NCBI RefSeq assembly: GCF_041897805.1
Contig: NZ_CP154825.1
Coordinates: 4,786,024 to 4,850,023 of the forward strand
Origin: Actinokineospora auranticolor
GTDB lineage: Bacteria; Actinomycetota; Actinomycetes; Mycobacteriales; Pseudonocardiaceae
DNA length: 64,000 bases
Direction: 5' to 3'
Below the pieces are notes generated by a model, which worked only from the letters and a program-made list of their open reading frames with translations, was not told the DNA's origin and made no database searches. Positions 3,373 to 15,894 of this stretch are shown one piece after another. The position numbers were made by a program, and so were the translations under genes. Position 1 is the stretch's first letter, and every line of letters begins with the position of its first letter.

Positions 3373-6300
3373 TTATGGGCCGCTGTGGATGAGGGCTGCC
3401 CAGCGGTCCGGGCGTTGGGGGTCGGAGTCTCGGAGTTCGCGGGTGACGTGGCGCAGGGTGGTTGCCGCGTCGGGGGCGGTTGGGCTGTCGGGGAGTCGGT
3501 CGTAGAAGGCGTGGGCGGCCGTGGCGCCGGTTGTGTCGTGCAAGGGCCAGAGGGTGGCGATGACGTGGCGGAAGCCCGCCAGGTGGAAAGCCGACGCGAG
3601 GTGGAGCACCTCGTCGGCGTGGCGGGTGCCGTGGTTGGCCGTCGAGCAGGCGGACAGGTAGGCGAGTTCGGCGTCCGGAAGGTGCAGTCCGCCGATCTCG
3701 GGTAGGAGCACGTCCCGGTCGTGCAGGACCAGTCCGCCCGCTGCGGGCGAGACCGGGTCGGTGATGGCGTGGCAGGCGAAATGCGCCCAAGTCGCCTTGC
3801 CCATGGCCGCCAAGACCGCGTCCCCGGTGGCGGCGGTGTCCACCAGCGTGGTCCCCCGCAGCGACTTGACTTCCTCGGCCGCGGTGGCCAGGTCTTGCGG
3901 CATGGCGACCGCGAGCACACGGCGTTCCGCGGCCGGTGGTCGGGACCGCGCGGCGCGCAGTACGCGCAGTGACGGGGTGTACGACGAGACGACCAGGTCC
4001 AATGCCCCCTGCTCCCCCGGGTGTCCCGCCGCGTGCAAGGGGAGCAGTCCCAGGACGCCAGTGGGCACCCACCAGACGCGGGTGGATGGCAGTGCGCTGA
4101 TGACCGGCCCGACCACGGCGTCCCACAGCCAGGCGAGTGTGTCGAGCAGGACAGGGCGTCGCCGCATCTGCATGGCCAACGAGTTGCCCTGGACGACGTT
4201 GAGCATCGCCGCGACACGGGCCTCCACGTCCACCAGGTCCGGCAGGTCCACCACCACCGGCTCGGCGTCGGAGCGCACCAATACGGCATGCCCACCACGG
4301 CGGTGCGCGCTGACCAGCACGGCCGTGCCCGCCTCGGGGCGCAGCGACCGCTCAGCTGGCTCGGCGAGGAAGTCGCCGAAGCCGGGCAGGTCGCGGATCT
4401 CGGCGAGCAGCTCGTCGTAGTCCCGCCACCAGCGCTTGCGCTCCGAGGTCGGGAAGTCCGGGGTGTTGAGCCGCTCGCACACCCACTCGAACCGGTCGGC
4501 CAGCTGACTCCGCGCGGACCGGAGCTGGGACAGGTCGACCCGGATGCCCGCCTCGGCCGCGAGCAGCACGCCGCGCCCGAGTTCGGCGACGGTGACCGCC
4601 CCGGCCGGGTCCGCCACCGCGCAGCGCGCCGCGACCGCGGCCTGCACCAAGCCCGACTGGGTGCCCAACCGGTCCGCCCAGTCCGCCTCGCGCGGCGGTA
4701 GCGACGGCAACAACCTGATCGCCGCGTCCAACACCGGCACGGCGAGGTCCGGTTCACCGATCGCCAACAGCAGCTCACCCACCGCGTGCTGGGCGGCGAC
4801 CTGGTCGTGCGGAGACGCCGACGGGGCGAGGAACACCTCGTCGGCGAGGGCGCGCACGGTGTCCGCCGGAACGGGAGCGTCGATGCGGGCCGCCTCGAGC
4901 AGGCAGCGGGCGAGTTCCCCCGCTCGCCGAATCCGCCGGGGGTGTTGCGGATCGGCCCGCACCAGCTCCCACGCGCGCTCGCTCGCCGACACCGCTTCGG
5001 CCAGGTGCGCGGCGTCCGGATCGGCGCGGAACCGGGCCAGGTAGGCGTCGGCGAGCACGGCGCGGCGATCCGGCAGGTCGACGTGATCGGTTCCGGTGGC
5101 GGCCACGGCGCCCTCGGCCAACGCCGTGGCCATGGCCAAGTCCCCTTCGGCATCGCGGATTCGCAGGTGGAGGGCAAGTTGCGCTTGGCGGTCGGGCAGC
5201 GACGCACGGCCCGCGCGGGTCGTGCGCACGGCTTGGTCGCCGAGTTCCACCGCCCGGTCGATCTCGGCCCGGTCCTGGGTGGCGAGGTAGCGGGCGTGGT
5301 GGATGCGGGCGGACACCGCCGCGTCCGTTGTCAGGCGGGCCGCGGCGTCCAAGTCGGCGCCTACTCCGTTGCGGGCGTAGCGGGTCAGGTGGATCTCGGC
5401 CAAGACCGCACCGGAGTCGGGGGCGGTGTTGTTCGCCGGGCGTGACCGGTGCGCCCAGGTCGCGTTCTTGACGGCCTGGTGCAGGTCCGCCTCCGCACCC
5501 CCGCCCAGGTAGCGCTGGTGCAGCGCGGCGGCCAGCGCCAGGTGGAGGCCGTGCAGGCGGGGGTGGTGGTCGGGTAGTTCGGCCAGGGTGTCCTTGGCCA
5601 GGGTGACGGCGCGGTCGAGGCTCGAGCGGTCGCCGCGGTGTCGGTACCGCAGCAACAACAGGGCGACGATGTCGGCTGCGGACTCGACGTCCACGGGTGG
5701 GACGACCAGTGTCCACGCGCGGTCGAGGTCGGGCAGGGTGGCGTCGCGTTCGAACCGGCGGGCCAGGGCGATCGCGAGGTGGGTGGACTCGCAGAAGTCG
5801 ATGGCGCGGTCGAGGTGGTTGTCGATACCGGTGTGGTCGTAGAGCAGTCGGTAGGCGACGCCCAGTGCGCCGCGGGCGGAGGGGACGTCGTGCAGGAGCT
5901 CACGTGCGCGCTCCAGGTCGTCCAGGTGGGTGTGGAGTGCGTACCTGTCCAGGTAGGCGCGGGCGAGGGCTTCGATGATCTCCGCGTCGTCTGTCGTGGC
6001 GATCACCCTGTCGCCCAGTTCGATGCCGTGCTCGAGATCAGCCGGGGCGCGTGAGTCCTGGTAGCGGCGCAGGTAGGCGAGGAACAGCACGCGCCTCAAT
6101 TCCGGGGAGCCTGCCGCGTGCGCAGCGACGAGCAGGATGCCTGCCTCCACCAGTTCCGGCTCGAAGCCGTCGAGCAGGCTCGTGCCGACCTCGACCTGGG
6201 TCCGCCGGTCGGCGAAGCGGCCGACGACCGGGGTCAGGTCCGGGGGGATCCGCTGGTGGTCGTCGGCGACCTGGGACAGGCAGATGATCGCCTTGGCGAG

Positions 6301-6534
6301 GTCGATCGGGCGCCGTCGGAACCGGTAGCGGCGGTGGTGGAACTGGCCGAGGACGGTCTTGGCCGCGGTCAGCTGTGCCGCGAGCACCCGTGACCCGCTG
6401 GCGTCGGTCGCCGCGCGCACGGTTCGCCACAGCTTGGTGGACTCCTCCTCGGCGTCGCGGGAGAACGCGGCCGGAAGCGGGTAGCGGACCCAGTCCGCCA
6501 CCCGGTTGATCTGCTCGTCGATCTGCACTCTCAC
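3373..6534 (-). CDS. TPR-repeat protein with C-terminal CHAT (caspase-like) protease domain
   Basis: About 880 aa of degenerate TPR-like repeats (…LDRAVTLAKDTLAELPDHHPRLHGLHLALAAALHQRY…). The C-terminal CHAT domain carries a His (WAHFACHA) and a Cys (LAYLSACSTANHG) dyad. GTG start at 6534 after a GGCGGAG RBS, overlapping the TGA of the upstream WD40 gene (GTGA). The ORF-track N-terminal extension to 6687 is rejected. Confidence 0.85.
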   Translation of the reverse strand: MRVQIDEQINRVADWVRYPLPAAFSRDAEEESTKLWRTVRAATDASGSRVLAAQLTAAKTVLGQFHHRRYRFRRRPIDLAKAIICLSQVADDHQRIPPDLTPVVGRFADRRTQVEVGTSLLDGFEPELVEAGILLVAAHAAGSPELRRVLFLAYLRRYQDSRAPADLEHGIELGDRVIATTDDAEIIEALARAYLDRYALHTHLDDLERARELLHDVPSARGALGVAYRLLYDHTGIDNHLDRAIDFCESTHLAIALARRFERDATLPDLDRAWTLVVPPVDVESAADIVALLLLRYRHRGDRSSLDRAVTLAKDTLAELPDHHPRLHGLHLALAAALHQRYLGGGAEADLHQAVKNATWAHRSRPANNTAPDSGAVLAEIHLTRYARNGVGADLDAAARLTTDAAVSARIHHARYLATQDRAEIDRAVELGDQAVRTTRAGRASLPDRQAQLALHLRIRDAEGDLAMATALAEGAVAATGTDHVDLPDRRAVLADAYLARFRADPDAAHLAEAVSASERAWELVRADPQHPRRIRRAGELARCLLEAARIDAPVPADTVRALADEVFLAPSASPHDQVAAQHAVGELLLAIGEPDLAVPVLDAAIRLLPSLPPREADWADRLGTQSGLVQAAVAARCAVADPAGAVTVAELGRGVLLAAEAGIRVDLSQLRSARSQLADRFEWVCERLNTPDFPTSERKRWWRDYDELLAEIRDLPGFGDFLAEPAERSLRPEAGTAVLVSAHRRGGHAVLVRSDAEPVVVDLPDLVDVEARVAAMLNVVQGNSLAMQMRRRPVLLDTLAWLWDAVVGPVISALPSTRVWWVPTGVLGLLPLHAAGHPGEQGALDLVVSSYTPSLRVLRAARSRPPAAERRVLAVAMPQDLATAAEEVKSLRGTTLVDTAATGDAVLAAMGKATWAHFACHAITDPVSPAAGGLVLHDRDVLLPEIGGLHLPDAELAYLSACSTANHGTRHADEVLHLASAFHLAGFRHVIATLWPLHDTTGATAAHAFYDRLPDSPTAPDAATTLRHVTRELRDSDPQRPDRWAALIHSGP

Positions 6535-8273
6535 TCCGCCAAACGGAGCAGACGAGCCGGGACGTGGTCCACATCGGTCACGGCGAGCACGACACCACCG
6601 TCCATTGTGGTCGTCATGGCCAGTGCGGTCGGGTACGTCTCGCGGCCCGTCACCGAGGCCAGTTCCTCCCCGGACTCGCTGTCCCACACCGCGGTGCGCT
6701 CGCCGTCGGTCACCGCGACCGCGACCCGCAGATCCTCCAGGACCGCCATGGCGAGTTGGCCGTACCTGCCGGGGACGGAGAACGCGCGGATCTCCTCACC
6801 GGTGGACCCATCCCAGACCCGCACCTCCGAGCCGCCGGCGACCCCCACCCGGAACGACCCGTCCGCCAACCCCACAACCGCCACACTCGGCGACTCGATC
6901 CCGAACCCGCCGCGCTCCAGGGTGAACGTGTGCAGGGTCGTCCGCGTGGTCGCGTCCCACACGTGGACGACCGAGCTGGCACCATCATCCGATCCAGCCA
7001 CCACGCAGACGTGCCCGTTCGCGAGCACGAGAGCGTCGAGCGACCACACGATGTGCACGCTCGGCGTGCCAACCTCCCAGTCCACGATCTTGCTTGCTGT
7101 CTCCGGGTCCCACACCACGACGGTCGCGTCGTCCCCACCGGTGATCAACCACGGCACTTCGCCCGGTGGGCAGGCCCAGGTGACGGCGTTGACCGGGCGG
7201 CGGTGCGCCTCGAAGCTCAACAGCGGTCGGCCGTCGCGCACCGCCCACAGCTTGACGAGCCCGTCCTGCCCGCCGGTCGCCAGCACCGCCTCCTCCTCGG
7301 GCAACGGCAACAACGCGGTGGCGAGCACCCGATCACCGTGACCGACGAACTCCTGGCGGGGCATACCGTCGCGGGGACTCCACACGGTCGCGCCGCCGTC
7401 GTCGCCGGAGGCCATCAGCAGGCTGCCGTCGGGGAGGTCGAGGAGCGTCAGCGCGTGCGGCGCGCTGCCGGACGACCAAGACTCGGGCGTCGCGTCGACG
7501 ACCTCCATCGGACCCGGCCCCCAACTCCGCGGGCGGCTGGTCATGCCTCGCACCCGACCGGGTTTCGCCGAGCGGGGGGTCGTGGGAAAGTCGATCGTCG
7601 CGCGGTAGCCGTACATCTCCAGGTGGTCGACGCGGTCCATGACGGCGCCATTCGGGAGTCGGACGAGGTTGTCCGGCATGTCCGAGGCGGAGTCGATGAC
7701 AATCGCGGGGATGTCGCAGGACCGGTACGGGAACTCCTCGCTGCGGTTGGCGTGGACGGTCTCCTCGTACTGGGTCTCCGCCGTGGACCTGTCCGGGTAG
7801 TCGACCACGTAGTAGTCGGAGCCTTCGTCGACTGCGGTCGCCACGGCGTACCGGTCGTCCCCGGTGAGGGGGTCGCGGTAGGCGACCGCGTCGATGAAGC
7901 CACCGAACAGCTCGTGCGCCAGGGTCTGCCGGAAGGTCTCGCCCGCGGCCATGGCCTGCTCGTAGCGTTTCCACCAACTGTCCGCGTGCGTGCCCCAGTG
8001 CCCGTACAGGCACTCGCCCGCGGTGTCGTAGAGCACCCGCGAACCATCCGCGGGGCGCATCGCGGCGAACGGGGCGTCGTCGCACTCCACCTGGACCCAC
8101 ACGCCGTCATGTCCCGCGCGGAGCGCTTGCACGGCGTCCCACGCACTTTGCTTGTCCGGGTAGCGGCGGTGACCGAAACCCGTGTGGTCGACCCGGTACT
8201 CCCCGGCGCGGACGCTGACCCGGATGTGCGCCTCCTCGTCCAGTGGTTTTCGCTTCCGCAGCACCCACTGCAT
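6531..8273 (-). CDS. WD40 β-propeller protein with ~270-aa uncharacterised N-terminal domain
   Basis: C-terminal repeats (ASGDDGGATVWSPRDG, ATGGQDGLVKLWAVRDG, TGGDDATVVVWDPETAS, AGSDDGASSVVHVWDATT…) are WD40 blades. ATG at 8273 (MQWVLRKRKPL…) avoids a 92-nt overlap with the upstream membrane-protein gene. Confidence 0.8.
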   Translation of the reverse strand: MQWVLRKRKPLDEEAHIRVSVRAGEYRVDHTGFGHRRYPDKQSAWDAVQALRAGHDGVWVQVECDDAPFAAMRPADGSRVLYDTAGECLYGHWGTHADSWWKRYEQAMAAGETFRQTLAHELFGGFIDAVAYRDPLTGDDRYAVATAVDEGSDYYVVDYPDRSTAETQYEETVHANRSEEFPYRSCDIPAIVIDSASDMPDNLVRLPNGAVMDRVDHLEMYGYRATIDFPTTPRSAKPGRVRGMTSRPRSWGPGPMEVVDATPESWSSGSAPHALTLLDLPDGSLLMASGDDGGATVWSPRDGMPRQEFVGHGDRVLATALLPLPEEEAVLATGGQDGLVKLWAVRDGRPLLSFEAHRRPVNAVTWACPPGEVPWLITGGDDATVVVWDPETASKIVDWEVGTPSVHIVWSLDALVLANGHVCVVAGSDDGASSVVHVWDATTRTTLHTFTLERGGFGIESPSVAVVGLADGSFRVGVAGGSEVRVWDGSTGEEIRAFSVPGRYGQLAMAVLEDLRVAVAVTDGERTAVWDSESGEELASVTGRETYPTALAMTTTMDGGVVLAVTDVDHVPARLLRLAE

Positions 8274-8295
8274 GACCGGCTCGTGCTCCACGCGC

Positions 8296-9174
8296 TCACC
8301 GTCCCTTTCGGACCAAAGCGGTGATCTCCCGCCCTTGATCGATGGTGAGGACCCCCGTCTCCTCCTGGTCGCCGACACCGAGGGCACGGGCCAGGGTGCG
8401 CCCGTGCAGATCGACGGCGGCCTCCGACAACACCGTCAGCTCGGCGATGGCGTGGCGCCCCTTGGCCCACCCGGTGGCACCGAACACCAGACCGATCACG
8501 GCGGCGGGCCACCACCACGCGGCGAGCACGAGGTAGGGCAGGCTCCACGTGCCGGTCGCCACCGCCGCGGCGAACGTCGACTCCGCCGCGGTGATCTCCG
8601 CGCGGACCGTGTCGGGTAGCACCAACCACAACCGCGACCAACCGAACGCCAAGTCGACGCCGAACCGGTTCAGCGCCACCTGTTCCACCGCGTGCACCCG
8701 GTCGCCCATCCAGGTCGGACGACCCGGCTCGGCCATCGCGATCCGGTTGGCCCGCTCGGCGAACCGGTCGACCTTCGCCTGCCGGTCGGGGTCGTCCCGG
8801 TCGACCGCCGCCCGTTTCTCGACCAGGGACAGCCACCGCCGCCTGCGCGCCGCCGCACGTAGACGCCGCACGGGACCCGGCCAGCGGCCGAGCCAGACCG
8901 CCCTGGTCAGCCCGGCGAGACCTTGTACAGCGAAGCCGATCCCGGCCGAGGCGAGGAGCAACGCCAGCACGGCGGTAACCTGGCCGCCGACCTGGAGGCG
9001 CAGCGCCGTCACGGCGTCCAGCCCCTGTCGCGCCCTGGTCCAGTCGAGCGCGAGCCGCTGGCCCTGCCACAGCGCGAGCGCGGCGAGCAAGATGAACAGC
9101 GCGCCGGGCAGGACCAGCAACGCCATCCAGCGCTCGGCCAGCTTCTTGGCCAGCTCCTCGAAGAACTTGCCCAC
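8296..9174 (-). CDS. Polytopic membrane protein, unknown function
   Basis: Several hydrophobic helices (ALLVLPGALFILLAALALW, VTAVLALLLASAGIGFAV, WSLPYLVLAAWWWPAAVIGLVFGATGW). Inside the 9174–9210 overlap, GC3 strongly favours the upstream small-ORF frame. A GTG start at 9174 (VGKFFEELAKK…) sharing one base with the upstream TAG is therefore preferred over ATG 9210. Confidence 0.6.
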   Translation of the reverse strand: MGKFFEELAKKLAERWMALLVLPGALFILLAALALWQGQRLALDWTRARQGLDAVTALRLQVGGQVTAVLALLLASAGIGFAVQGLAGLTRAVWLGRWPGPVRRLRAAARRRRWLSLVEKRAAVDRDDPDRQAKVDRFAERANRIAMAEPGRPTWMGDRVHAVEQVALNRFGVDLAFGWSRLWLVLPDTVRAEITAAESTFAAAVATGTWSLPYLVLAAWWWPAAVIGLVFGATGWAKGRHAIAELTVLSEAAVDLHGRTLARALGVGDQEETGVLTIDQGREITALVRKGR

Positions 9175-9530
9175 TACAGGCGCCTCATGCGCAGGCCGAG
9201 CAACGCGCACCGGGGCGGTTCACCCGCCGGAACCGTTCGCGCACGGTGGTTGCAACTGTCGTCGGGACAGCCGAAGACCTCGTCGTCGGCTCGACCCCCG
9301 CCCGCGCCGGGCAGGCCGGTGGCGGGGCCTCGGCGCGCTTCCACAATGTCCTCGGGGTCGCACTCGAGCAGTTGCGAGACGAGCCTGGCCACCGGGCGGC
9401 GGGAGGCGGCCTCGACCTCTATGCGGTCCAGCAGCGCCTTGCGGTCCGCCGACAGGTTCGCGCATTCCTGGCGCAGCTCGGGCAACCCCGCGCAGAGCAT
9501 GGTCAGCACATCCCGCTCGAACCTGTCCAC
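9174..9530 (-). CDS. Small Cys-rich hypothetical protein (~118 aa)
   Basis: GTG at 9530 preceded by GGGAGGA with a 4-nt spacer. GC3 is near 100% through the region that overlaps ORF 8296..9210. Six Cys, including the C-P-D-D-S-C-N-H cluster. No recognisable family. Confidence 0.45.
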   Translation of the reverse strand: MDRFERDVLTMLCAGLPELRQECANLSADRKALLDRIEVEAASRRPVARLVSQLLECDPEDIVEARRGPATGLPGAGGGRADDEVFGCPDDSCNHRARTVPAGEPPRCALLGLRMRRL

Positions 9531-9555
9531 CGCGTCCTCCCGTCTTCGTGGCGCA

Positions 9556-10116
9556 CTACCCGAGCGCGAGCTGTCCCCGGTCGATGAGACCACGAATGAA
9601 GGGAGGCCAATCGTCGGCCAACTTCTCGGCCAGGGCTTGTCGGACGGCATCTCGTTCACCCTCGGTGAGAACTTCACTCGATCCGTCGCCATAGTGCACC
9701 CGGTGGACAATGGCGGCGTTGCCGATGTGCATCAAAGCCCGTCGGCTGACGGTCATGAACAGGCCCAAGGTGTTGCCGGGAATGTAGTTGAGCGCGGAGA
9801 GCCAATCCACCTCCAGCGCCGCCCACGACGACCCCTGCTCGTCCAGCCACCTGGTGACATCGGTGAAGAACACAACCCGCTGGTCCGGGTGCTCGCGCGC
9901 ATAGCGGCGGCAGCAGCTCGCCACGTCCAGTGCGTGCGGAGGGTGCGTTCCCTCCTTGACGAACCGGGTATCGAACGCGAACGCGCCCTCGACCATCGCC
10001 TCCGTCGACCATTCATCGATATCGAGGGCGTGCACCACCCAGAAGGGCGGCTGCATGATGTTGCGAACGAGGTCCTCGTCGCTCGAGCGTGGAGGGTGTG
10101 ACTGCACGGGTAGCAC
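9556..10116 (-). CDS. Hypothetical protein (186 aa), lower-GC codon usage
   Basis: Protein-like sequence (FFTDVTRWLDEQGSSWAALEVDWLSALNYIPGNTLGLFMTVSRRALMHIGNAAIVHRVHY…). First gene after a 735-bp lower-GC intergenic region. Contains noticeably more A/T-ending codons than its neighbours. Confidence 0.55.
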   Translation of the reverse strand: MLPVQSHPPRSSDEDLVRNIMQPPFWVVHALDIDEWSTEAMVEGAFAFDTRFVKEGTHPPHALDVASCCRRYAREHPDQRVVFFTDVTRWLDEQGSSWAALEVDWLSALNYIPGNTLGLFMTVSRRALMHIGNAAIVHRVHYGDGSSEVLTEGERDAVRQALAEKLADDWPPFIRGLIDRGQLALG

Positions 10117-10850
10117 GTTAGTGGATCTTCCCGTGCTGGAGTCCGCTATCGCCGAAGACGAGGAGGGCTCAATTTTGGCTGGGGCTCGACAGGGTGGTCA
10201 TACCGGCAGTCGGCACAACGACCGTTGTCGCCTGCCATCGCGCAGGGTTGAGCGAGCGCCTGTTGAGATGATCCGGGCGTGGTTCCGGTAGCGTGAGCCG
10301 TCTGGGCACGGGCCTGTCGACTCGGGCGTTCGCGGCCCTGGTGGCAGAGCTCGGCCTGGCTTGAGATGTCCGTGCAGACGCACGGCGGGTGGCTCAGCCG
10401 CGTCTGCGCACAGTGGCTGCCAATTGTGGCCACCACAGGCAGATACCGCGCAACGGCGCTCTGGCCGGATGGGGCTCGGCGTGCCGGGACAAGCCCATCT
10501 GGTCGCCCTCACGGCCAGCACCTCCGCCAGCCACGGAAACCACCGACGCCCAGTCATCGCTCCGACCGATCACACCAGGGCGCGATGTCGTTCCGCAGGC
10601 GCAGGTGCCGACCGCCATTCCGGGAACTCAGGGGAAGGCGGACGCCGTCGGTGCGCGCAGGCGGAGACGCCGATGTCGAGGAAACGAGTTCGAACGCCTC
10701 GCTCATGACGCGGCCGAGCACGAATACGAAAACACTTTGCATTCTCCGGGGTGTCACGCTAGCGATTCTTCGCCAACCGCCGGACAACCGGTGACCGCTT
10801 GGCTACTATCTGTTCGTTGGTGCCGTCAGATGCGCTGAGAGTCTCAGAGC

Positions 10851-11672
10851 GTGTTTGAGAACGTTGGTGATCTTCAGGCGTTGGATGACGCGGTGGTGGC
10901 GTTGAGTGCGTTGAGGGAAGTGGCGCCCATAGGGCTTCCCGAGCGGGTCGAGGCGGTGGAGAACCTCGGTGTGTTGCTGCGGCTGCGGTTTGAGCGGCTT
11001 GGCGACCTCGACGACATCACCAGGTCCGTCGAAGCGCACCGGGAAGTGCTGGCGATCCTGTCACCCGACGATCCGACTTATCCTCGGCAGCAGGCTCAGC
11101 TTGCCAGTGCGCTGATGCCTCGGGGTGTCGCCACCACCGATCGGGGCGACTGCGAGGAAGCGCTGGGGTTGTGGCAGGACGCTCTTGCGGCGCTGCCGCC
11201 CGGTCATCCTGACGCGGGCCGCCACCGCCAGCTTGTGGGTGTGGGGCTTTCGGTACGGGCGGAGGTGTTCGGGTCGCTCCCCCATCGCAATGCGGCGGTT
11301 GCGTTTTGGCGGGCGGCGCTGGGCACTACCGAACCTGGGTCGCCTCAGCGGTTCATCGCTCGCGAGATGTTGGGGGCGAACCTGTTGGGTCGGTTCGCCG
11401 AGTTCACTGCCGATGCCGACCTGGCTGAAGCTCTCGCGGTGGCGCGGGACGCGCTCGCGGACGCGGGCCCCGAGCACCGCCTTCAGGCGACTCGCTCGCT
11501 CTGCAGTGCCCTTGACGCGCGGTTTCGGCGGTTCGGGGTTCGTGAAGACCTTGACGAACTCATCGAGCAGGGTGAGGTCGTACTGCACCTCATGCCCGCC
11601 GAGCACCCGGACCGGCCCGCTCACGAGCAGGGCATGGTCCACGCCCGCGCGCTACGCGACGATCGGGCCTAG
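10851..11672 (+). CDS. Stand-alone TPR-repeat protein (resembles the N-terminal repeat region of CHAT proteins)
   Basis: 273 aa of repeats of the type LGVLLRLRFERLGDLDDITRSVEAHREVL / LGANLLGRFAEFTADADLAEALAVARDAL. GTG start. The stop shares the palindromic CTAG with the convergent NTPase gene. Confidence 0.6.
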   Translation: MFENVGDLQALDDAVVALSALREVAPIGLPERVEAVENLGVLLRLRFERLGDLDDITRSVEAHREVLAILSPDDPTYPRQQAQLASALMPRGVATTDRGDCEEALGLWQDALAALPPGHPDAGRHRQLVGVGLSVRAEVFGSLPHRNAAVAFWRAALGTTEPGSPQRFIAREMLGANLLGRFAEFTADADLAEALAVARDALADAGPEHRLQATRSLCSALDARFRRFGVREDLDELIEQGEVVLHLMPAEHPDRPAHEQGMVHARALRDDRA

Positions 11673-14600
11673 CCCACTCTGCCGATCACGGACTCGACTG
11701 ATATCCGGGCCCACACCGCGCTCAATGTCGCGACGATCAGGGCGGCGGCGAAGGTTATCCAGAGCCCTGGGTCGGTCACGATGCGGTCGAACCAGGTGAT
11801 GGCGGCGATGCCGAGTAGCAGCACCGCCGATTTGGTGTCCGTGCAGACCGCGAATACCGAGAACGGCACGGTCGCGTAGTCGCTGCGTAGCGCGAACATC
11901 AAGGCCGACAGCACGGCGACCGCCACGACCAAGGCGGTGGCGATGGTGACCGGCACGGCGCCCCGCACAGCTGTGAAGACCCCGACGGCGGTGTACAGCG
12001 CGGCGGGCACCAGCAGCCGCAGGCCGAGCCACCTCGACGCGGTGTGTGAGCGGCGCAGCACCTCCCGGGTCCGCGCCAGTTCCGGATCGGGCCGTGGTGG
12101 TGCGGGGATGATCGGGAGGAGTTCGATCAGCTCCAGCGCGTCGGCGATGTCGTCCGGGGAGGCCGATAGGGAACGCAGCAGCGCCAACGATTCTTCGGCC
12201 TCACGTAGAGCCGCGTCGCGGTCGCCGCCCGCGCGCGCGGTGGCCAATGCCGACAACCGCAGCGTCCTGGCCAGGGGCAAGGTGAACGCGGCGGGTTCGG
12301 CGGCGGCCAGTGCTCGGTGTCGGACGACCGCGTCCTTGAGGATGGTGGCCGCCTCGGTGTGCTCGCCCTGTCGGTACAGCACCGCGCCCAGCCGGGCCGA
12401 TCCGTGTGCCACGTCGAACTCGAAGCCCTCCTCCACCGCGGCCAAGTCCCGGTAGCGCGCCAGCGACTCGCGCAGCACGGTCACCGCCTCGGGGACGCGG
12501 TCGAGTTCCGCCAGCAGCTCGCCGTGGTTGGCCAGCGCCCTCGCCAGGTGCGGCCGGAACACCTCGGGGACCGCGGCGGCCAGCGGTCGCAGCGCGGCGA
12601 TCGCGTCCACCCCCGTCGCGAGCGCCTCGGTCGACCGACCCGACGCGGCCAGCGCGAGGCTCAGGTTGACCAGTGCCGTGGCCAGGCTCCCGGCGGAGTC
12701 CGCGGTGTCCGCCTCGACGAGCGACCGGCACAGCCGTACCGACTCGGTGAGCGCCGCCACCGCCTCGGCCGGGCGGCCCGCGTCCACCAGCGCCAGGCCG
12801 TGGGCGGTGAGGGCCTTGTCCAACCGCCGCGTGCCCGCGAGTTCGCCCGCGTCGAGCAGGGCGCGGCTCAGCTCGACGGCCTCCGCCGCGGCGGTGACGG
12901 CGTCGGTGGGTCTGCCGTTCTCGGTCAGCCTGGCGCCCAAGTCGCTTAGCGCGGCGGCGAGACCGGCCGTCTCGCGCTCGGGGTCGCGCGCGGCCAGTCG
13001 TCTGCGCAGCGCCACCACTTCCGCGGCGACCGCGAGTGCCTCGGCCGGGCGACCGGCGGTCGCCAGGTCGGTGGCGTGGTTTCCCAACGCGATCGCGAGC
13101 CGGGGTTCGAACCGGTCCGGGTAGGTCGCGGCCGGGCCGCGCAGGCCCGCCACGGCCTCCCCCGCCGTCCGCACCGCGTCGGCGCGCCTGCCCGCGCGCG
13201 CCTGCGCGACCGCCAGGGCGGCGCGCGCCTCGGCCAGGCTCACCGCGTGCGCGGTCGGGTTGCGTTCGGCCTCCACGCGGAAGATGGCCACGGCCTCCTC
13301 CGCCGCGTCCACGGCCTCTTGGGGCCGCTGCGCGGTGGCGAGCCGGTCCGCGAGGTGGGTCAGCGTGACGGCCAGGTGGACGCGTTGGGTGCTGTTGTCC
13401 TCGGTGGCGACGCCGCGGAACAGGGCGACGGCCTCGACGGTCGACTCCAGCGCCGCCGGGTGCCGGTCCGCGTCCGCCAACGCCGTCCCGAGGTCGCCCA
13501 GGGCGATGGCCAGGTCGGGCGTGTGGACGAGCCGGTTCGCCTCGACCAGTTCACGCAGCAGCGCGACCCGCTCCTCGAACACCGCGACCGCCGCCGCCCA
13601 CTCCCCCTTGTCCCTCAGGCGAGTGCCGTGAACGCGCAGCAGCGCCACGGACTCGTCGGGGGACTCGTCGGGGTCTCGCGGCAGCGCGATCGCCTCGTCG
13701 GAGACGGCTTCCGCCTCCCGCACCCGGCCCACGGCCGTGTAGTGGCTCGCCAGGTTCCCCAACGACCGGGACAGTGCGACGGCGAACCGTTCCGGGTCGA
13801 CGGCGAAGAGCGCGCGGTGCGCCGCCACCGCTTCCTCCCCGAGCCGCACGGCTTCGTCGCGGCGGCCCAGGCTCGCCATGGCGATGCCCAGGTTGTCCAC
13901 GCCCGCCGCCAAGGTGCCCGCGTGGGCGTCGGGATCGGCGGCGTGCAGTTCGCGGCGCAGCGCCACGCACTCGGTGAACGCCGCCAGCGCCTCGTCGAAC
14001 CGGTCCGCGGCGAGCAATCGGGACCCGAGCGCGCCGTACAACACCGCTTTGGTCGCGAGATCGGTCTCCTCGACCAGCCTACGTCCGATGTGGACATTGG
14101 CCACCGCGGCGACCCCGGCCGCCAGGTCCGGGTCGACCGCGGCGGGGAACCGTTCGATGATGCCGGTCAGCGTGGTCTGGTCGATCCCCGGAATGGTCGC
14201 GACCACGCCCAACGCGCCACTGCCCGCCGCCACGGCCAGGTGCGGATCACGGCGCAGCAGGGGAAGCAACAACGTCTCGGCGACGTGCGGCCAGCGGTGC
14301 GCCGCGGCGGCCAGGAACGTGACCGCGCGGGGTGTCCAGTCGGCGGGCTCACGGCTCGTCGGCACCCGCGCGAGGACCGCCCGCGCCGTCTCGGCCGCCC
14401 AGGGCGCGGCCGGGTGGTCCGCGTCGTGGCCCGGCAGGGTGAGCGCGAGGAAGTCCTCGGCCAGGCGGTCCGGGTAGAGCGGTTCCAGGGCCGCGCCGTC
14501 CTCCGGCGGGTAGCACGCGGCGTGGTCGCCGACGGCGTCGTCCGGCAGGTCCAGGCGGTCGGCGACGACGCGCTCGGCGGCGGCGAGGGGTTGGGCGCCG

Positions 14601-15562
14601 GTCAGCGTCGCGGTGAACACGACCCGGTGCATGGCCTCGGGGGTCGTGCGGTAGCCGTCGCGGCGTTCGTGCATGAGGTGCCAGTGCAGGTGTTCGCGGT
14701 CGAGCAGGTACGCGGTCGTGCCCGCCAGGTCGGCGGGCGGGGTGCGACTGGCCGCGTGCGCGTCCACGGCGACCAAGGCCGTCATGTGCACGGCGAGCGT
14801 GAGACCGAACTCGGGGTTGCCGTCGAGGTCGGGTGGCTGCCGCACGTCCGCCGGGTCAATCAGGTCGTAGTAGGGGGCGAAGGCGTCGCGGGCGGCGGTG
14901 AACATGGTCGTGCGGTCGGCCGGTGGCAGGGTCGTGAGCGCCGAAGAGGACGTCCGGGAGCGCAACGCGACCAACGCGCCGCGCACGGCGGGCCAGGCGG
15001 TGTCGGTTCGGGCGATCAGCAGCAGCCGGGTCCGCGTGCCGGGTTGGGCGAACAGCGCGTTGCTCAGCAGCCACCGCAGGTGGGTTTGCGGCCACTGGTC
15101 GGCGTAGTCGACGACCAGCAGCACCCCGGCCTTCCCGTCGACACGCAGGTCCTGGCTGCCCGGCGCGACGGCGACGGCCCCCGGGCCGTGGGTGGCGGTG
15201 ACGACCAGCCAGCCCGCCGCGTCGGACTCGGCCGCGAGCCGGTCGGCGAGACGGGTCTTACCCGCGCCGCCGGGGCCGTGCAACCAGTGCGCGGCGAGGT
15301 CGCCGTCCGCGTCGCGCCAGGCCCGGAGCCGGTCGAGTTCGTCGGCGCGGCTGGTGAACCCGACCACCGCGCTGCGGGCGTGCAGCAGTCGGCTGGGGAC
15401 CTCCCGCAGCCACGCGTCGGGTGGGGGCGTCGGCGGTGACCAGCGCCGGAGCAGGTACAGCGGCGCGCCGTCGCCCAGGACGTGGATGTCCGCGCCGATC
15501 ACGCCGTAGGCGAAGCCGCCGGTGGCGGTCACGTGCTGGACGGCGCCGTCCGCGGCCGTCAC
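11669..15562 (-). CDS. STAND-type P-loop NTPase with TPR array and C-terminal 4-TM domain
   Basis: Starts at a GTG overlapping the TGA of the upstream small gene (VTAADGAVQHVTATGGFAYGVIGADIHV…). Walker A is WLHGPGGAGKTRLADRL. Walker B-like motif is GVLLVVDYADQW, followed by TRLLLIARTDTAWP. About 13 TPR units follow (…AIALGNHATDLATAGRPAEALAVAAEVVALRRRL…). Four hydrophobic helices sit at the C-terminus (WLGLRLLVPAALYTAVGVFTAV…LSAVWARISV). The ORF-track extension to 17269 is read-through into the opposite-strand ROK gene and is rejected. Confidence 0.8.
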   Translation of the reverse strand: MTAADGAVQHVTATGGFAYGVIGADIHVLGDGAPLYLLRRWSPPTPPPDAWLREVPSRLLHARSAVVGFTSRADELDRLRAWRDADGDLAAHWLHGPGGAGKTRLADRLAAESDAAGWLVVTATHGPGAVAVAPGSQDLRVDGKAGVLLVVDYADQWPQTHLRWLLSNALFAQPGTRTRLLLIARTDTAWPAVRGALVALRSRTSSSALTTLPPADRTTMFTAARDAFAPYYDLIDPADVRQPPDLDGNPEFGLTLAVHMTALVAVDAHAASRTPPADLAGTTAYLLDREHLHWHLMHERRDGYRTTPEAMHRVVFTATLTGAQPLAAAERVVADRLDLPDDAVGDHAACYPPEDGAALEPLYPDRLAEDFLALTLPGHDADHPAAPWAAETARAVLARVPTSREPADWTPRAVTFLAAAAHRWPHVAETLLLPLLRRDPHLAVAAGSGALGVVATIPGIDQTTLTGIIERFPAAVDPDLAAGVAAVANVHIGRRLVEETDLATKAVLYGALGSRLLAADRFDEALAAFTECVALRRELHAADPDAHAGTLAAGVDNLGIAMASLGRRDEAVRLGEEAVAAHRALFAVDPERFAVALSRSLGNLASHYTAVGRVREAEAVSDEAIALPRDPDESPDESVALLRVHGTRLRDKGEWAAAVAVFEERVALLRELVEANRLVHTPDLAIALGDLGTALADADRHPAALESTVEAVALFRGVATEDNSTQRVHLAVTLTHLADRLATAQRPQEAVDAAEEAVAIFRVEAERNPTAHAVSLAEARAALAVAQARAGRRADAVRTAGEAVAGLRGPAATYPDRFEPRLAIALGNHATDLATAGRPAEALAVAAEVVALRRRLAARDPERETAGLAAALSDLGARLTENGRPTDAVTAAAEAVELSRALLDAGELAGTRRLDKALTAHGLALVDAGRPAEAVAALTESVRLCRSLVEADTADSAGSLATALVNLSLALAASGRSTEALATGVDAIAALRPLAAAVPEVFRPHLARALANHGELLAELDRVPEAVTVLRESLARYRDLAAVEEGFEFDVAHGSARLGAVLYRQGEHTEAATILKDAVVRHRALAAAEPAAFTLPLARTLRLSALATARAGGDRDAALREAEESLALLRSLSASPDDIADALELIELLPIIPAPPRPDPELARTREVLRRSHTASRWLGLRLLVPAALYTAVGVFTAVRGAVPVTIATALVVAVAVLSALMFALRSDYATVPFSVFAVCTDTKSAVLLLGIAAITWFDRIVTDPGLWITFAAALIVATLSAVWARISVESVIGRVG

Positions 15563-15894
15563 CGGTGCTCCCGACCTGGGCCCGCCGGGTGGTTGACGAT
15601 GTCGCCGCCGATCACGCCCTGCGCGATCCCGCCCCCGGACGCCGTGATGGTCTGGGTCGGCGCGGGCGCCCGCCGGGACTGCGCCAGGGTCACGACCAGC
15701 GACACCAGCCCCAGCACGAGCGACGCGCCGCCGATGAACATGCTCACCACGCTCGCCTGCGAGTCCCGCTCGTCCAGTGGCAGCCGGAAGTACCCGACCA
15801 GCGCGCGGACCAGCCACACCCCGGCCACGACCACCACCGCTGTGGCGACCGCCGCGCCGATCACCCAGACCCGTCTCCGGTTCGCCACCCGCAC
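15559..15894 (-). CDS. Small 2-TM membrane protein whose C-terminal tail repeats the NTPase N-terminal motif
   Basis: 111 aa with a GTG start. Two hydrophobic helices, then …ITASGGGIAQGVIGGDIVNHPAGPG at the C-terminus. Its stop overlaps the NTPase start (GTGA). Confidence 0.6.
   Translation of the reverse strand: MRVANRRRVWVIGAAVATAVVVVAGVWLVRALVGYFRLPLDERDSQASVVSMFIGGASLVLGLVSLVVTLAQSRRAPAPTQTITASGGGIAQGVIGGDIVNHPAGPGREHR

Follow-up and report, generated by a model that had tools for sequence, protein, structure and literature searches.

Cell death in fungi, animals and bacteria is connected by amyloid-templated signalling, in which NLR receptors act on executioners, and the bacterial catalogues rest on Pfam NB-ARC/NACHT matches together with Bell domains. 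Bell/BASS pairs occur in filamentous actinomycetes and cyanobacteria and consist of a small effector gene collinear with an NLR gene (91% collinear, 42% overlapping). Their motif is about 25 aa long, rich in G/V/I/Q/N and poor in K/P/L, and the screen in which they were described required NB-ARC/NACHT (Dyrka et al. 2020, bioRxiv 10.1101/2020.01.06.895854). In E. coli, amyloid templating has been demonstrated experimentally for the antiphage abortive-infection pair Bab/Agp (Ibarlosa et al. 2024, bioRxiv 10.1101/2024.11.07.622273). Here we analysed an island of genes at positions 3373-15894 of a 64,000-nucleotide stretch of DNA from Actinokineospora auranticolor, the whole of which is referred to as the window. 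The island is composed of module A, in which a STAND NTPase-TPR protein (the NLR) is preceded by the gene of a small membrane protein (g109), and module B, built around a TPR-CHAT protease. As judged from its sequence, module A has the anatomy of Bell/BASS amyloid-signalling NLR pairs.

Module A shares with Bell/BASS-NLR pairs the upstream, collinear and overlapping small gene, the common Gly/Val/Ile-rich motif of ~20-25 aa, and the actinomycete host. It differs in the family of its nucleotide-binding oligomerisation module (NOD), in an effector that is a hairpin of two transmembrane (TM) segments and not a Bell helical bundle, and in a four-TM tail on the receptor. Like Bab/Agp, it comprises adjacent genes and a 109-aa membrane-targeting executioner (putative in module A) whose C-terminal motif is matched at the N-terminus of a large TPR sensor. 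However, Agp is organized as TPR-GreA/B-C-PIN with no STAND NTPase, the motif of that pair belongs to class BASS11, and Bab is a soluble helical “Babybell” relocating to the membrane, whereas g109 is predicted to be an integral TM hairpin. Fungal NWD2/HET-S and related NLR/HeLo amyloid pairs follow the logic proposed for module A, in that the STAND receptor bears repeats and, at its N-terminus, a templating motif (putative in module A), and that an adjacent gene codes for a membrane-damaging effector with the same motif. The fungal system is, in contrast, eukaryotic, with a NACHT NOD, WD repeats, a HeLo effector and HRAM motifs, and has no sequence relationship to module A.

Two modules in one island

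Gene models were established by frame analysis of third-position GC (GC3) and by the public gene calls of contig PTIX01000016.1 (GCA_002934265.1), on which the region was located by exact sequence; the TPR-CHAT protein is 100% identical to a protein of A. auranticolor. The resulting gene set is the same as the public one, and GC3 sorted out many overlapping open reading frames (ORFs) in this DNA, in which G+C amounts to 72% across the window. Positions of all features are listed in Table 1. A 4-nt GTGA overlap at 15559-15562 joins the stop codon of g109 with the GTG start of the NLR gene, and GTGA at 6531-6534 likewise joins the stop and start of the genes coding for the 586-aa WD40 protein (WD586) and the 1053-aa protease. 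Genes of the 118-aa protein (g118) and the 292-aa membrane protein (mem292) overlap by 1 nt at 9174. Because of these overlaps, two operons can be delimited. A stand-alone TPR ORF (TPR273), convergent with the NLR gene and overlapping its stop, is located between them, in a segment (~9.5-11.7 kb) in which GC dips to 0.65-0.68, compared with 0.72-0.78 around it. Given the convergent ORF and the low-GC gap, the modules cannot share a transcript.

To follow the two modules separately, 79 loci of the NLR family were fetched with 10-kb flanks from Streptomyces, Kitasatospora, Micromonospora, Dactylosporangium, Nonomuraea, Kribbella and others. Homologues of the CHAT, WD40, 292-aa, 118-aa and 183-aa (g183) proteins were found within 10 kb in none of them (0/79). 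Module B, in turn, recurs without this NTPase in Lentzea, Amycolatopsis, Actinomadura, Frankia and Dactylosporangium, as well as in metagenomes (at least 11 loci altogether), and never beside module A. The island is therefore described here as two independent, separately inherited modules of the cell-death or defence type, which are neighbours by chance.

The earlier note on this DNA had read the whole 12.5 kb as a single “ternary” NTP-dependent conflict system, in which the STAND NTPase would switch on the TPR-CHAT protease and the remaining proteins would act as sensors or partners. The genes are indeed placed side by side and nearly all on one strand, defence genes often cluster, and the set of domains (STAND, TPR, WD40, caspase-like peptidase, TM) corresponds to the parts list of conflict systems known to be enriched in multicellular actinomycetes (Kaur et al. 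2020, PMC7159879). The MoxR-vWA-VMAP/iSTAND systems are, however, based on a MoxR and vWA core pair, and neither MoxR nor vWA was detected in the nine island proteins by Pfam and NCBIfam searches. In the EACC1-caspase system (System 4, PMC7159879), an N-terminal caspase is combined with single-TM EACC1, unlike the C-terminal CHAT and the 292-aa membrane protein with 3-4 TM segments in the island. Since MoxR and vWA are missing, and since NTPase and protease were not found together in the loci compared, the island is not a ternary system. The separation of the operons and the presence of a matched effector next to the NTPase also speak against a single system. With no co-occurrence of its two halves, this reading is largely refuted, and we consider it highly improbable.

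Other parts of that description fared better. All genes that it listed exist at or near the positions given there, as judged by GC3 and public gene calls, and its assignments of CHAT, WD40, TPR, a STAND-type P-loop NTPase and TM partners are correct. The four-TM tail and the 2-TM mini-protein were confirmed as well, and several sizes had to be adjusted: the membrane protein has 292 aa instead of 304, the 186-aa ORF corresponds to 183 aa, the N-domain of the WD40 protein is 285 aa long (~270 in the note), and TPRs number ~14-15 (previously ~13). Conserved co-occurrence, proposed there as a check, is absent between the two halves of the island and present within each of them. The conflict or programmed-cell-death flavour ascribed to the island is a reasonable judgement.

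Receptor and effector of module A

The C-terminus of g109, ITASGGGIAQGVIGGDIVNH, matches the N-terminus of the NLR, VTATGGFAYGVIGADIHVLG. Local alignment of the g109 motif with the NLR N-terminus has a score of 58, which was reached by 0 out of 20000 shuffles of either partner. In addition, when the 64-kb window was translated in all six frames, nothing apart from the NLR N-terminus itself matched this N-terminus better than the g109 motif. The motif is rich in Gly, Val, Ile and Ala and contains no Lys or Pro. On the effector side it is followed by a disordered Pro/Gly tail, and the same arrangement characterizes BASS proteins. By eye, the g109 motif is closest to the published BASS6 VTITASGERSIAAHTIGTAVT (ITASG..IA...IG). 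These results modify the view of the NTPase as devoid of an N-terminal effector, because the NLR carries at this end a 25-aa putative signalling motif common to g109.

The receptor-side consensus QxVxAxxGFAYGVIGADIHVFGDGxPLY is conserved at the N-terminus throughout the NLR family, and most of the genes upstream of the family members terminate in a similar motif (e.g. WVQHVTAHGQGTAFGVQGGDIHYH or YIQNINASAQGATAQGVMFGNIINH). A hidden Markov model (HMM) of the effector-side motif was built from 30 motifs, leaving out the window, and it scored 30.0 bits with g109 and 23.1 bits with the N-terminus of the window NLR. Within 750 nt upstream of the NLR gene, matches of at least 15 bits were obtained in 58 of the 80 loci, and they end 12-153 nt ahead of the NLR N-terminus. 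No match of 10 bits or more was obtained in three controls, for which the reverse frames of the same DNA, sequence located 3 kb upstream and the interior of the NLR gene were scanned. When applied to NLR N-termini, the same HMM reached at least 10 bits in 56/80. More distant NLR homologues (P0071, P0080, P0104 and P0112) have another beta-prone motif at the N-terminus, e.g. GSVVHGPVVQAGSIAGGVHFH, and the NOD family thus seems to use more than one motif class.

The receptor consists of the N-terminal motif, the NOD, a TPR sensor array and a hydrophobic tail. The AF2 model of the NOD (pLDDT 91.5, pTM 0.91), in agreement with Foldseek, identifies it by its predicted fold as STAND, with the organization NBD-helical-winged-helix. 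Residues G99, G101, K102 and D152 are invariant across 80 homologues. Pfam search of the NLR disclosed no NTPase match at E ≤ 0.01, and neither NB-ARC nor NACHT was detected; matches of the NOD to AAA_16 (21 bits), NPHP3_N and NACHT remained below the threshold, and nSTAND_NTPase5 gave 24 bits in one NLR homologue against a cutoff of 34. Because the NOD family is missed by Pfam NB-ARC/NACHT, it falls outside the screen of Dyrka et al. The family is nevertheless large: more than 240 homologues of the N-terminal 480 residues, at identities up to 57%, were found in the protein database, and at least 460 relatives in one-genome-per-species data. The TPR array was recognized by Pfam TPR_12 (1.3e-24) and TPR_10 (3.9e-23), and its autocorrelation peaks at lag 46, indicating a 46-aa period.

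The four-segment tail is a rare addition to this architecture. Among 79 family loci, a multi-TM tail was observed elsewhere only in Catellatospora paridis (L045), while in L038 two internal hydrophobic segments are present in a possible fusion. No homology could be detected between the tail of the window NLR and either the tail in C. paridis or the g109 hairpin. At the C. paridis locus (L045:10001-13585) the upstream effector motif is not recognisable (-1.3 bits), and the tail might for this reason act as an effector in cis.

No family was assigned to g109 in Pfam, NCBIfam or PADLOC. Its sole homologue found, with 40% identity, is encoded in Saccharopolyspora ipomoeae (L032), likewise upstream of an NLR. 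In about 54 of the 58 motif-bearing loci, the upstream gene codes for a helical protein of ~130-170 aa with an N-terminal hydrophobic helix (…LAxAGAxxVVAAMATDAW…), and these proteins fit the description of the Bell domain. A TM-hairpin effector is encoded instead in 3-4 loci (the window, L006, L059 and L032), and only the L032 protein is homologous to g109. The sub-type of the window effector motif, ITASxxGxxAQGVxxGxIxNH, is found on helical effectors in L016, L024, L031 and L069, which indicates that the executioner domain has been swapped and the motif kept. In Dactylosporangium darangshiense, a helical Bell-like effector, the C-terminal motif and the NLR N-terminus are united in a single ORF (P0059, 568 aa), which may be an artefact (of a frameshift or of the assembly) or an “all-in-one” architecture.

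Gene overlap, motif match, family conservation, the STAND fold and TM segments are the observed features of module A, and on these grounds it probably signals from the NLR to the effector through the shared motif. In the mechanism that we propose, a trigger would be bound by the 46-aa-period TPR array of the STAND NTPase, and the NOD would oligomerise in a nucleotide-dependent manner, gathering the N-terminal motifs VTATGGFAYGVIGADIHV into a cross-beta template. This template would recruit and convert the matching C-terminal motif ITASGGGIAQGVIGGDIV of co-translated g109, and TM hairpins of g109 would then cluster in the membrane, causing membrane damage and killing or arresting the cell. Templating is expected at the inner face of the membrane, since both partners, the hairpin g109 and the four-TM-tailed NLR, are predicted membrane proteins. 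Positive-inside charges (RRR at the N-terminus, SRR after TM2) suggest that both ends of g109, including the motif, are cytoplasmic, and the even number of TM segments in the NLR tail would leave the NOD and TPRs in the cytoplasm. Amyloid templating, membrane topology and lethality are the inferred parts of this scheme.

Several observations weigh against amyloid templating. Neither the receptor motif GFAYGVIGADIHV nor the effector motif strings are present in the published BASS tables (Table S2), and a string search of the literature for the receptor motif gave no matches. The effector in the window, g109, is not a Bell domain, and helical effectors of the relatives show no significant sequence link to Bell or Bab. 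The mean similarity of cognate motif pairs (30.3) does not exceed that of non-cognate pairs (29.6) beyond chance, the observed value being reached in 1557 of 10000 permutations, and the receptor-side motif is almost invariant across the family. There is accordingly no signal of pair-specific co-evolution, and the motif match is claimed at the family level only. In the AF2 model, the receptor motif is a low-confidence segment with short beta strands, and its distal part (GDGxPLYLL) forms in this model a strand that packs against the NOD, so that a structural role is possible.

The near invariance of the receptor motif with no covariation between partners, its partial packing against the NOD and its position outside the published BASS classes would also be expected if the shared motif were real but served as a homotypic docking strand (beta-augmentation) or as an autoinhibitory or regulatory peptide. 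In these cases the small protein would be bound to the receptor in a stoichiometric manner, with the motif acting, for instance, as an anti-toxin-like clamp or as a tag for recruitment to the membrane. Against such a role, the motif is found at the extreme C-terminus of the effector and the extreme N-terminus of the receptor, and in these positions, as well as in length, composition, gene arrangement and taxonomic range, it matches validated BASS and fungal motifs. The disordered Pro/Gly tail that follows it in the effector, known from BASS proteins, points in the same direction. We consider docking or regulation by this motif unlikely, and retain templated signalling as the preferred explanation.

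It could also be argued that module A is an inactive relic, in which the TM tail of the NLR (a fusion or read-through) and the hairpin (a degenerate effector) are incidental. The tail is present in only 2-3 of 80 loci and is non-homologous between them, and the window NLR and g109 have no close relatives, each forming a one-member cluster at 90%. However, coding GC3 of 0.85-0.97 is held, in the same frame, through the tail and in the effector (0.95 in g109), and the Walker motifs and all family-invariant residues are intact in the window NLR. Moreover, the motif pair of the window ranks third of 44 in match quality, and a homologous TM-hairpin effector has been retained in Saccharopolyspora. 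A relic is in our view very unlikely.

The CHAT protease operon, module B

In the TPR-CHAT protein, residues 798-1052 match the Pfam CHAT domain PF12770 with E = 4.7e-44 (151 bits against a cutoff of 24). All of the 75 homologues compared, fungal ones among them, have the putative catalytic residues H922 and C963. The profile alignment places them on H615 and C658 of Csx29, the residues catalytic in that protein, mutation of which abolishes cleavage of Csx30 (PMC10028731). Csx29 was reached from the CHAT domain with a nine-sequence profile, and single-sequence searches of PDB did not reach it. The catalytic His/Cys check suggested in the earlier note is thereby answered in the positive, and from its residues the protease is predicted to be catalytically competent.

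The WD40 protein WD586 is composed of an N-domain and a propeller recognized by Pfam WD40 families. Its homologues align along the full length, with the N-domain included. The N-domain family is tiny: a scan of 1.84 billion representatives gave 30 clusters at E ≤ 1e-3, and WD40 is present in nearly all of the full-length members. Word-indexed protein search missed homologues of the N-domain, which is a false negative because an 82%-identical Lentzea protein exists; tblastn in the fetched loci and a full HMMER scan both found homologues, so that a blank result of the word-indexed search does not mean absence. Residues 112-156 of WD586 (7824-7958) match weakly to 4-15 repeated stretches in the SWM_repeat proteins P0262, P0263, P0266 and P0270 (E 1e-9 to 6e-4), which likely reflects a shared beta-hairpin or Ig-like element, or composition.

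The membrane protein mem292 has 3-4 hydrophobic segments, an invariant FFxELAKKLAERW helix at the N-terminus and RKGR at the C-terminus. The g118 protein is soluble and includes a helical N-terminal part, an invariant GLPGAGxGRADxE loop and a C-terminal CPDxxC…C motif (9204-9269). It is conserved at 38-82% identity and is always adjacent to the membrane gene. Searches with single sequences and family alignments against Pfam and PDB revealed no significant link of g118, mem292 or the N-domain to a solved structure or curated family, and g183 gave no match in Pfam, NCBIfam or PADLOC.

The order 118 aa - membrane - WD40 - CHAT is preserved in Lentzea sp. NPDC005914 (L081, 81-82% identity) and in Amycolatopsis mediterranei (L082, 46/68/53/53% identity). 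In Actinomadura graeca (L084) and Frankia sp. (L086), the 118-aa and membrane pair is divergent from the WD40 and CHAT pair, and Dactylosporangium aurantiacum (L085) has WD40 and CHAT only. A metagenome scan with mem292 revealed 14 further loci, with g118 adjacent in 11, TPR-CHAT nearby in 8 and WD40 in 3. A homologue of g183 was detected only in the metagenome locus L088, directly upstream of the 118-aa gene, and in no other module B locus. From these recurring gene sets, CHAT, mem292 and g118 can be defined as the conserved core, to which one clade has added the N-domain-WD40 protein; g183 is lineage-specific. A Rosetta-stone link between WD40 and CHAT, which are separate genes in the window, is given by P0150 and P0151, both of them WD40-TPR-CHAT fusions. 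The former, a 1484-aa protein of Saccharothrix sp. BKS2 (L087:10001-14455), has an N-terminal WD40 propeller fused to TPR-CHAT and does not contain the novel N-domain.

Some of the module B loci show further features. The membrane gene in Lentzea (L081:5277-5804) has two internal deletions, by which TM2 and TM3/4 are lost, and codes for 175 aa compared with 292. This copy may be in decay, or the sequence may be misassembled. Genes found in the neighbourhood of module B include NACHT and a UvrD-like helicase in Amycolatopsis (L082:1990-6754), Mrr_cat in Dactylosporangium (L085:7497-8075) and several TIR_2/EAD1 in Frankia (L086:12920-17769). These defence-like neighbours are consistent with location in conflict islands.

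As a possible, still tentative interpretation, module B may be a protease-gated membrane effector. Its repeat domains (WD40 with the N-domain, and TPR) would sense a signal and release the activity of CHAT, which would then cleave g118 or a cytoplasmic segment of mem292. We favour this interpretation because of the analogy with CHAT-activated bacterial gasdermins and with Csx29/Csx30. In bacterial gasdermin operons, a CHAT protease, often fused to TPR, WD40 or NACHT, activates an adjacent membrane executioner by cleavage (Johnson et al., bioRxiv 10.1101/2021.06.07.447441). Csx29 of the type III-E CRISPR complex Craspase combines, as the protease in the window does, a TPR array with a C-terminal CHAT and an aligned His/Cys pair; it is inactive until a partner changes its conformation, and then cuts the operon-encoded Csx30.

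The differences from both systems are nevertheless clear. The match of TPR-CHAT to the Csx29 family NF041237 of NCBIfam reached 40 bits against a cutoff of 300, there is no Cas7-11 or Csx30/31 nearby, where the genes are metabolic or belong to no known family, and the partners in the window are WD40, membrane and 118-aa Cys proteins. With regard to gasdermin operons, mem292 is polytopic and constitutively in the membrane, it is accompanied by a small soluble protein, and cleavage is here putative. The protease-gated interpretation is weakened by four observations: no gasdermin or other family match was obtained for g183, g118 and mem292, alone or as family alignments, so that mem292 is not a gasdermin; WD40 and CHAT are present in Dactylosporangium without the small and membrane genes; the membrane gene in Lentzea carries deletions; and PADLOC has no model for module B.

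Module B might alternatively carry out regulated proteolysis in development or envelope homeostasis, as has been proposed for HetF-type CHAT proteases in cyanobacteria, with the membrane and 118-aa proteins being a sensor or anchor and not the target. Such a role would agree with the lack of a toxin-like domain, an NTPase and a PADLOC model, with the restriction of the module to filamentous actinomycetes, and with a small, vertically patchy family. However, neighbouring genes differ in each genus and are often defence genes, the patchy spread at 44-82% identity across families suggests horizontal transfer, and one copy may be decaying, as is typical of dispensable conflict genes. We regard a developmental or homeostatic role as doubtful; a membrane-sensor model is a further alternative to the protease-gated effector. 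Equally doubtful in our opinion is a broader proposal for the island, according to which module B is an undescribed NTPase-free, protease-gated death system, in which the novel N-domain (possibly WGR-like) of the WD40 protein senses the invader and guides TPR-CHAT in one clade, and cleavage of g118 or mem292 inflicts a non-gasdermin lesion on the membrane. Jointly with this, module A would be the first bacterial integral-membrane NLR, templating an integral-membrane hairpin executioner through an unclassified BASS-like motif that marks a family (at least 460 loci) not seen in NB-ARC/NACHT-based surveys.

Surroundings of the modules and significance

Table 1. Positions of modules, genes and sequence features of the island in the window
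Feature	Positions	Strand	Remarks
Module B	3373-9530	-	with or without 9556-10107
TPR-CHAT protease	3373-6534	-	1053 aa
CHAT domain	3379-4143	-	C-terminal, after ~700 aa of TPR
Cys963 codon (predicted catalytic)	3646-3648	-	
His922 codon (predicted catalytic)	3769-3771	-	
WD40 protein, WD586	6531-8291	-	586 aa
WD40 propeller of WD586	6534-7436	-	residues ~286-586
Novel N-domain of WD586	7437-8291	-	285 aa; no Pfam match
Membrane protein, mem292	8296-9174	-	292 aa
g118	9174-9530	-	118 aa
g183	9556-10107	-	183 aa; public gene call; first gene of the module B operon in A. auranticolor
Stand-alone TPR ORF, TPR273	10851-11672	+	273 aa
Module A	11669-15888	-	
STAND NTPase-TPR protein, NLR	11669-15562	-	1297 aa
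Four-segment hydrophobic tail of the NLR	11693-12031	-	residues 1178-1290; from hydrophobicity
TPR sensor array of the NLR	12083-14122	-	residues ~481-1160; ~14-15 units
STAND-type NOD	14123-15385	-	NLR residues ~60-480
Walker B, LLVVDYAD	15098-15121	-	NLR residues 148-155
Walker A, GPGGAGKT	15254-15277	-	NLR residues 96-103
Receptor-side motif, VQHVTATGGFAYGVIGADIHVLGDG	15467-15541	-	NLR residues 8-32; 25 aa
2-TM mini-protein, g109	15559-15888	-	109 aa
Effector-side BASS-like motif, TQTITASGGGIAQGVIGGDIVNH	15589-15657	-	g109 residues 78-100
Predicted TM helices of g109			residues ~8-30 and ~46-70, from hydrophobicity; C-terminal tail predicted cytoplasmic

Genes flanking the island are metabolic or regulatory: PIG-L/methyltransferase and acyl-CoA-dehydrogenase-like genes border it at one end, and ROK, luciferase-like and ABC genes at the opposite end. 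A tRNA gene was not found around the island, nor did promoter or terminator signals exceed chance there, and IMG/VR viral contigs contained no relatives of module A or module B; there is therefore no evidence of a mobile element. PADLOC recognized none of the island proteins as a known defence protein, its sole match being a weak WD40-repeat one (1.7e-06) to a HEAT-ARM candidate model. The low-GC stretch between the modules (9500-11700) harbours g183 and TPR273, as well as a gap that looks non-coding and contains a spurious ORF of 119 aa (10198-10557). It may represent a junction of separately acquired DNA.

TPR273 is 25-33% identical to TPR arrays of TPR-CHAT homologues and has a 45-aa period. 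With 26.0 bits, its match to Pfam TPR_10 is just under the cutoff of 27.5 bits. In the other loci examined, it is conserved beside neither module A nor module B. This ORF is probably a remnant or an orphan piece of a CHAT-type TPR array. We also considered it as a mark of a disrupted TPR-CHAT gene and rejected this possibility, since the similarity is of a generic repeat kind and no CHAT remnant was found in the ORF or anywhere else in the window.

The novelty of module A lies in its NOD family, the hairpin effector and the TM-tailed receptor, while module B is built from a known protease family. The combination of CHAT, a membrane protein and a Cys protein, with or without WD40, is absent from PADLOC, Pfam and PDB, and is a candidate for a new caspase-like, protease-controlled membrane system with a logic like that of gasdermins and Craspase. 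With regard to module A, the locus draws attention to an actinomycete NLR family that is large (at least 460 relatives) and is missed by NB-ARC/NACHT screens, and most of its loci carry a matched motif pair. The comparison of loci further suggests that a bare TM hairpin can take the place of a helical Bell-like effector domain, and that the receptor itself can be membrane-anchored, which would widen the known repertoire. With only 109 aa, g109 is a candidate for a minimal executioner.

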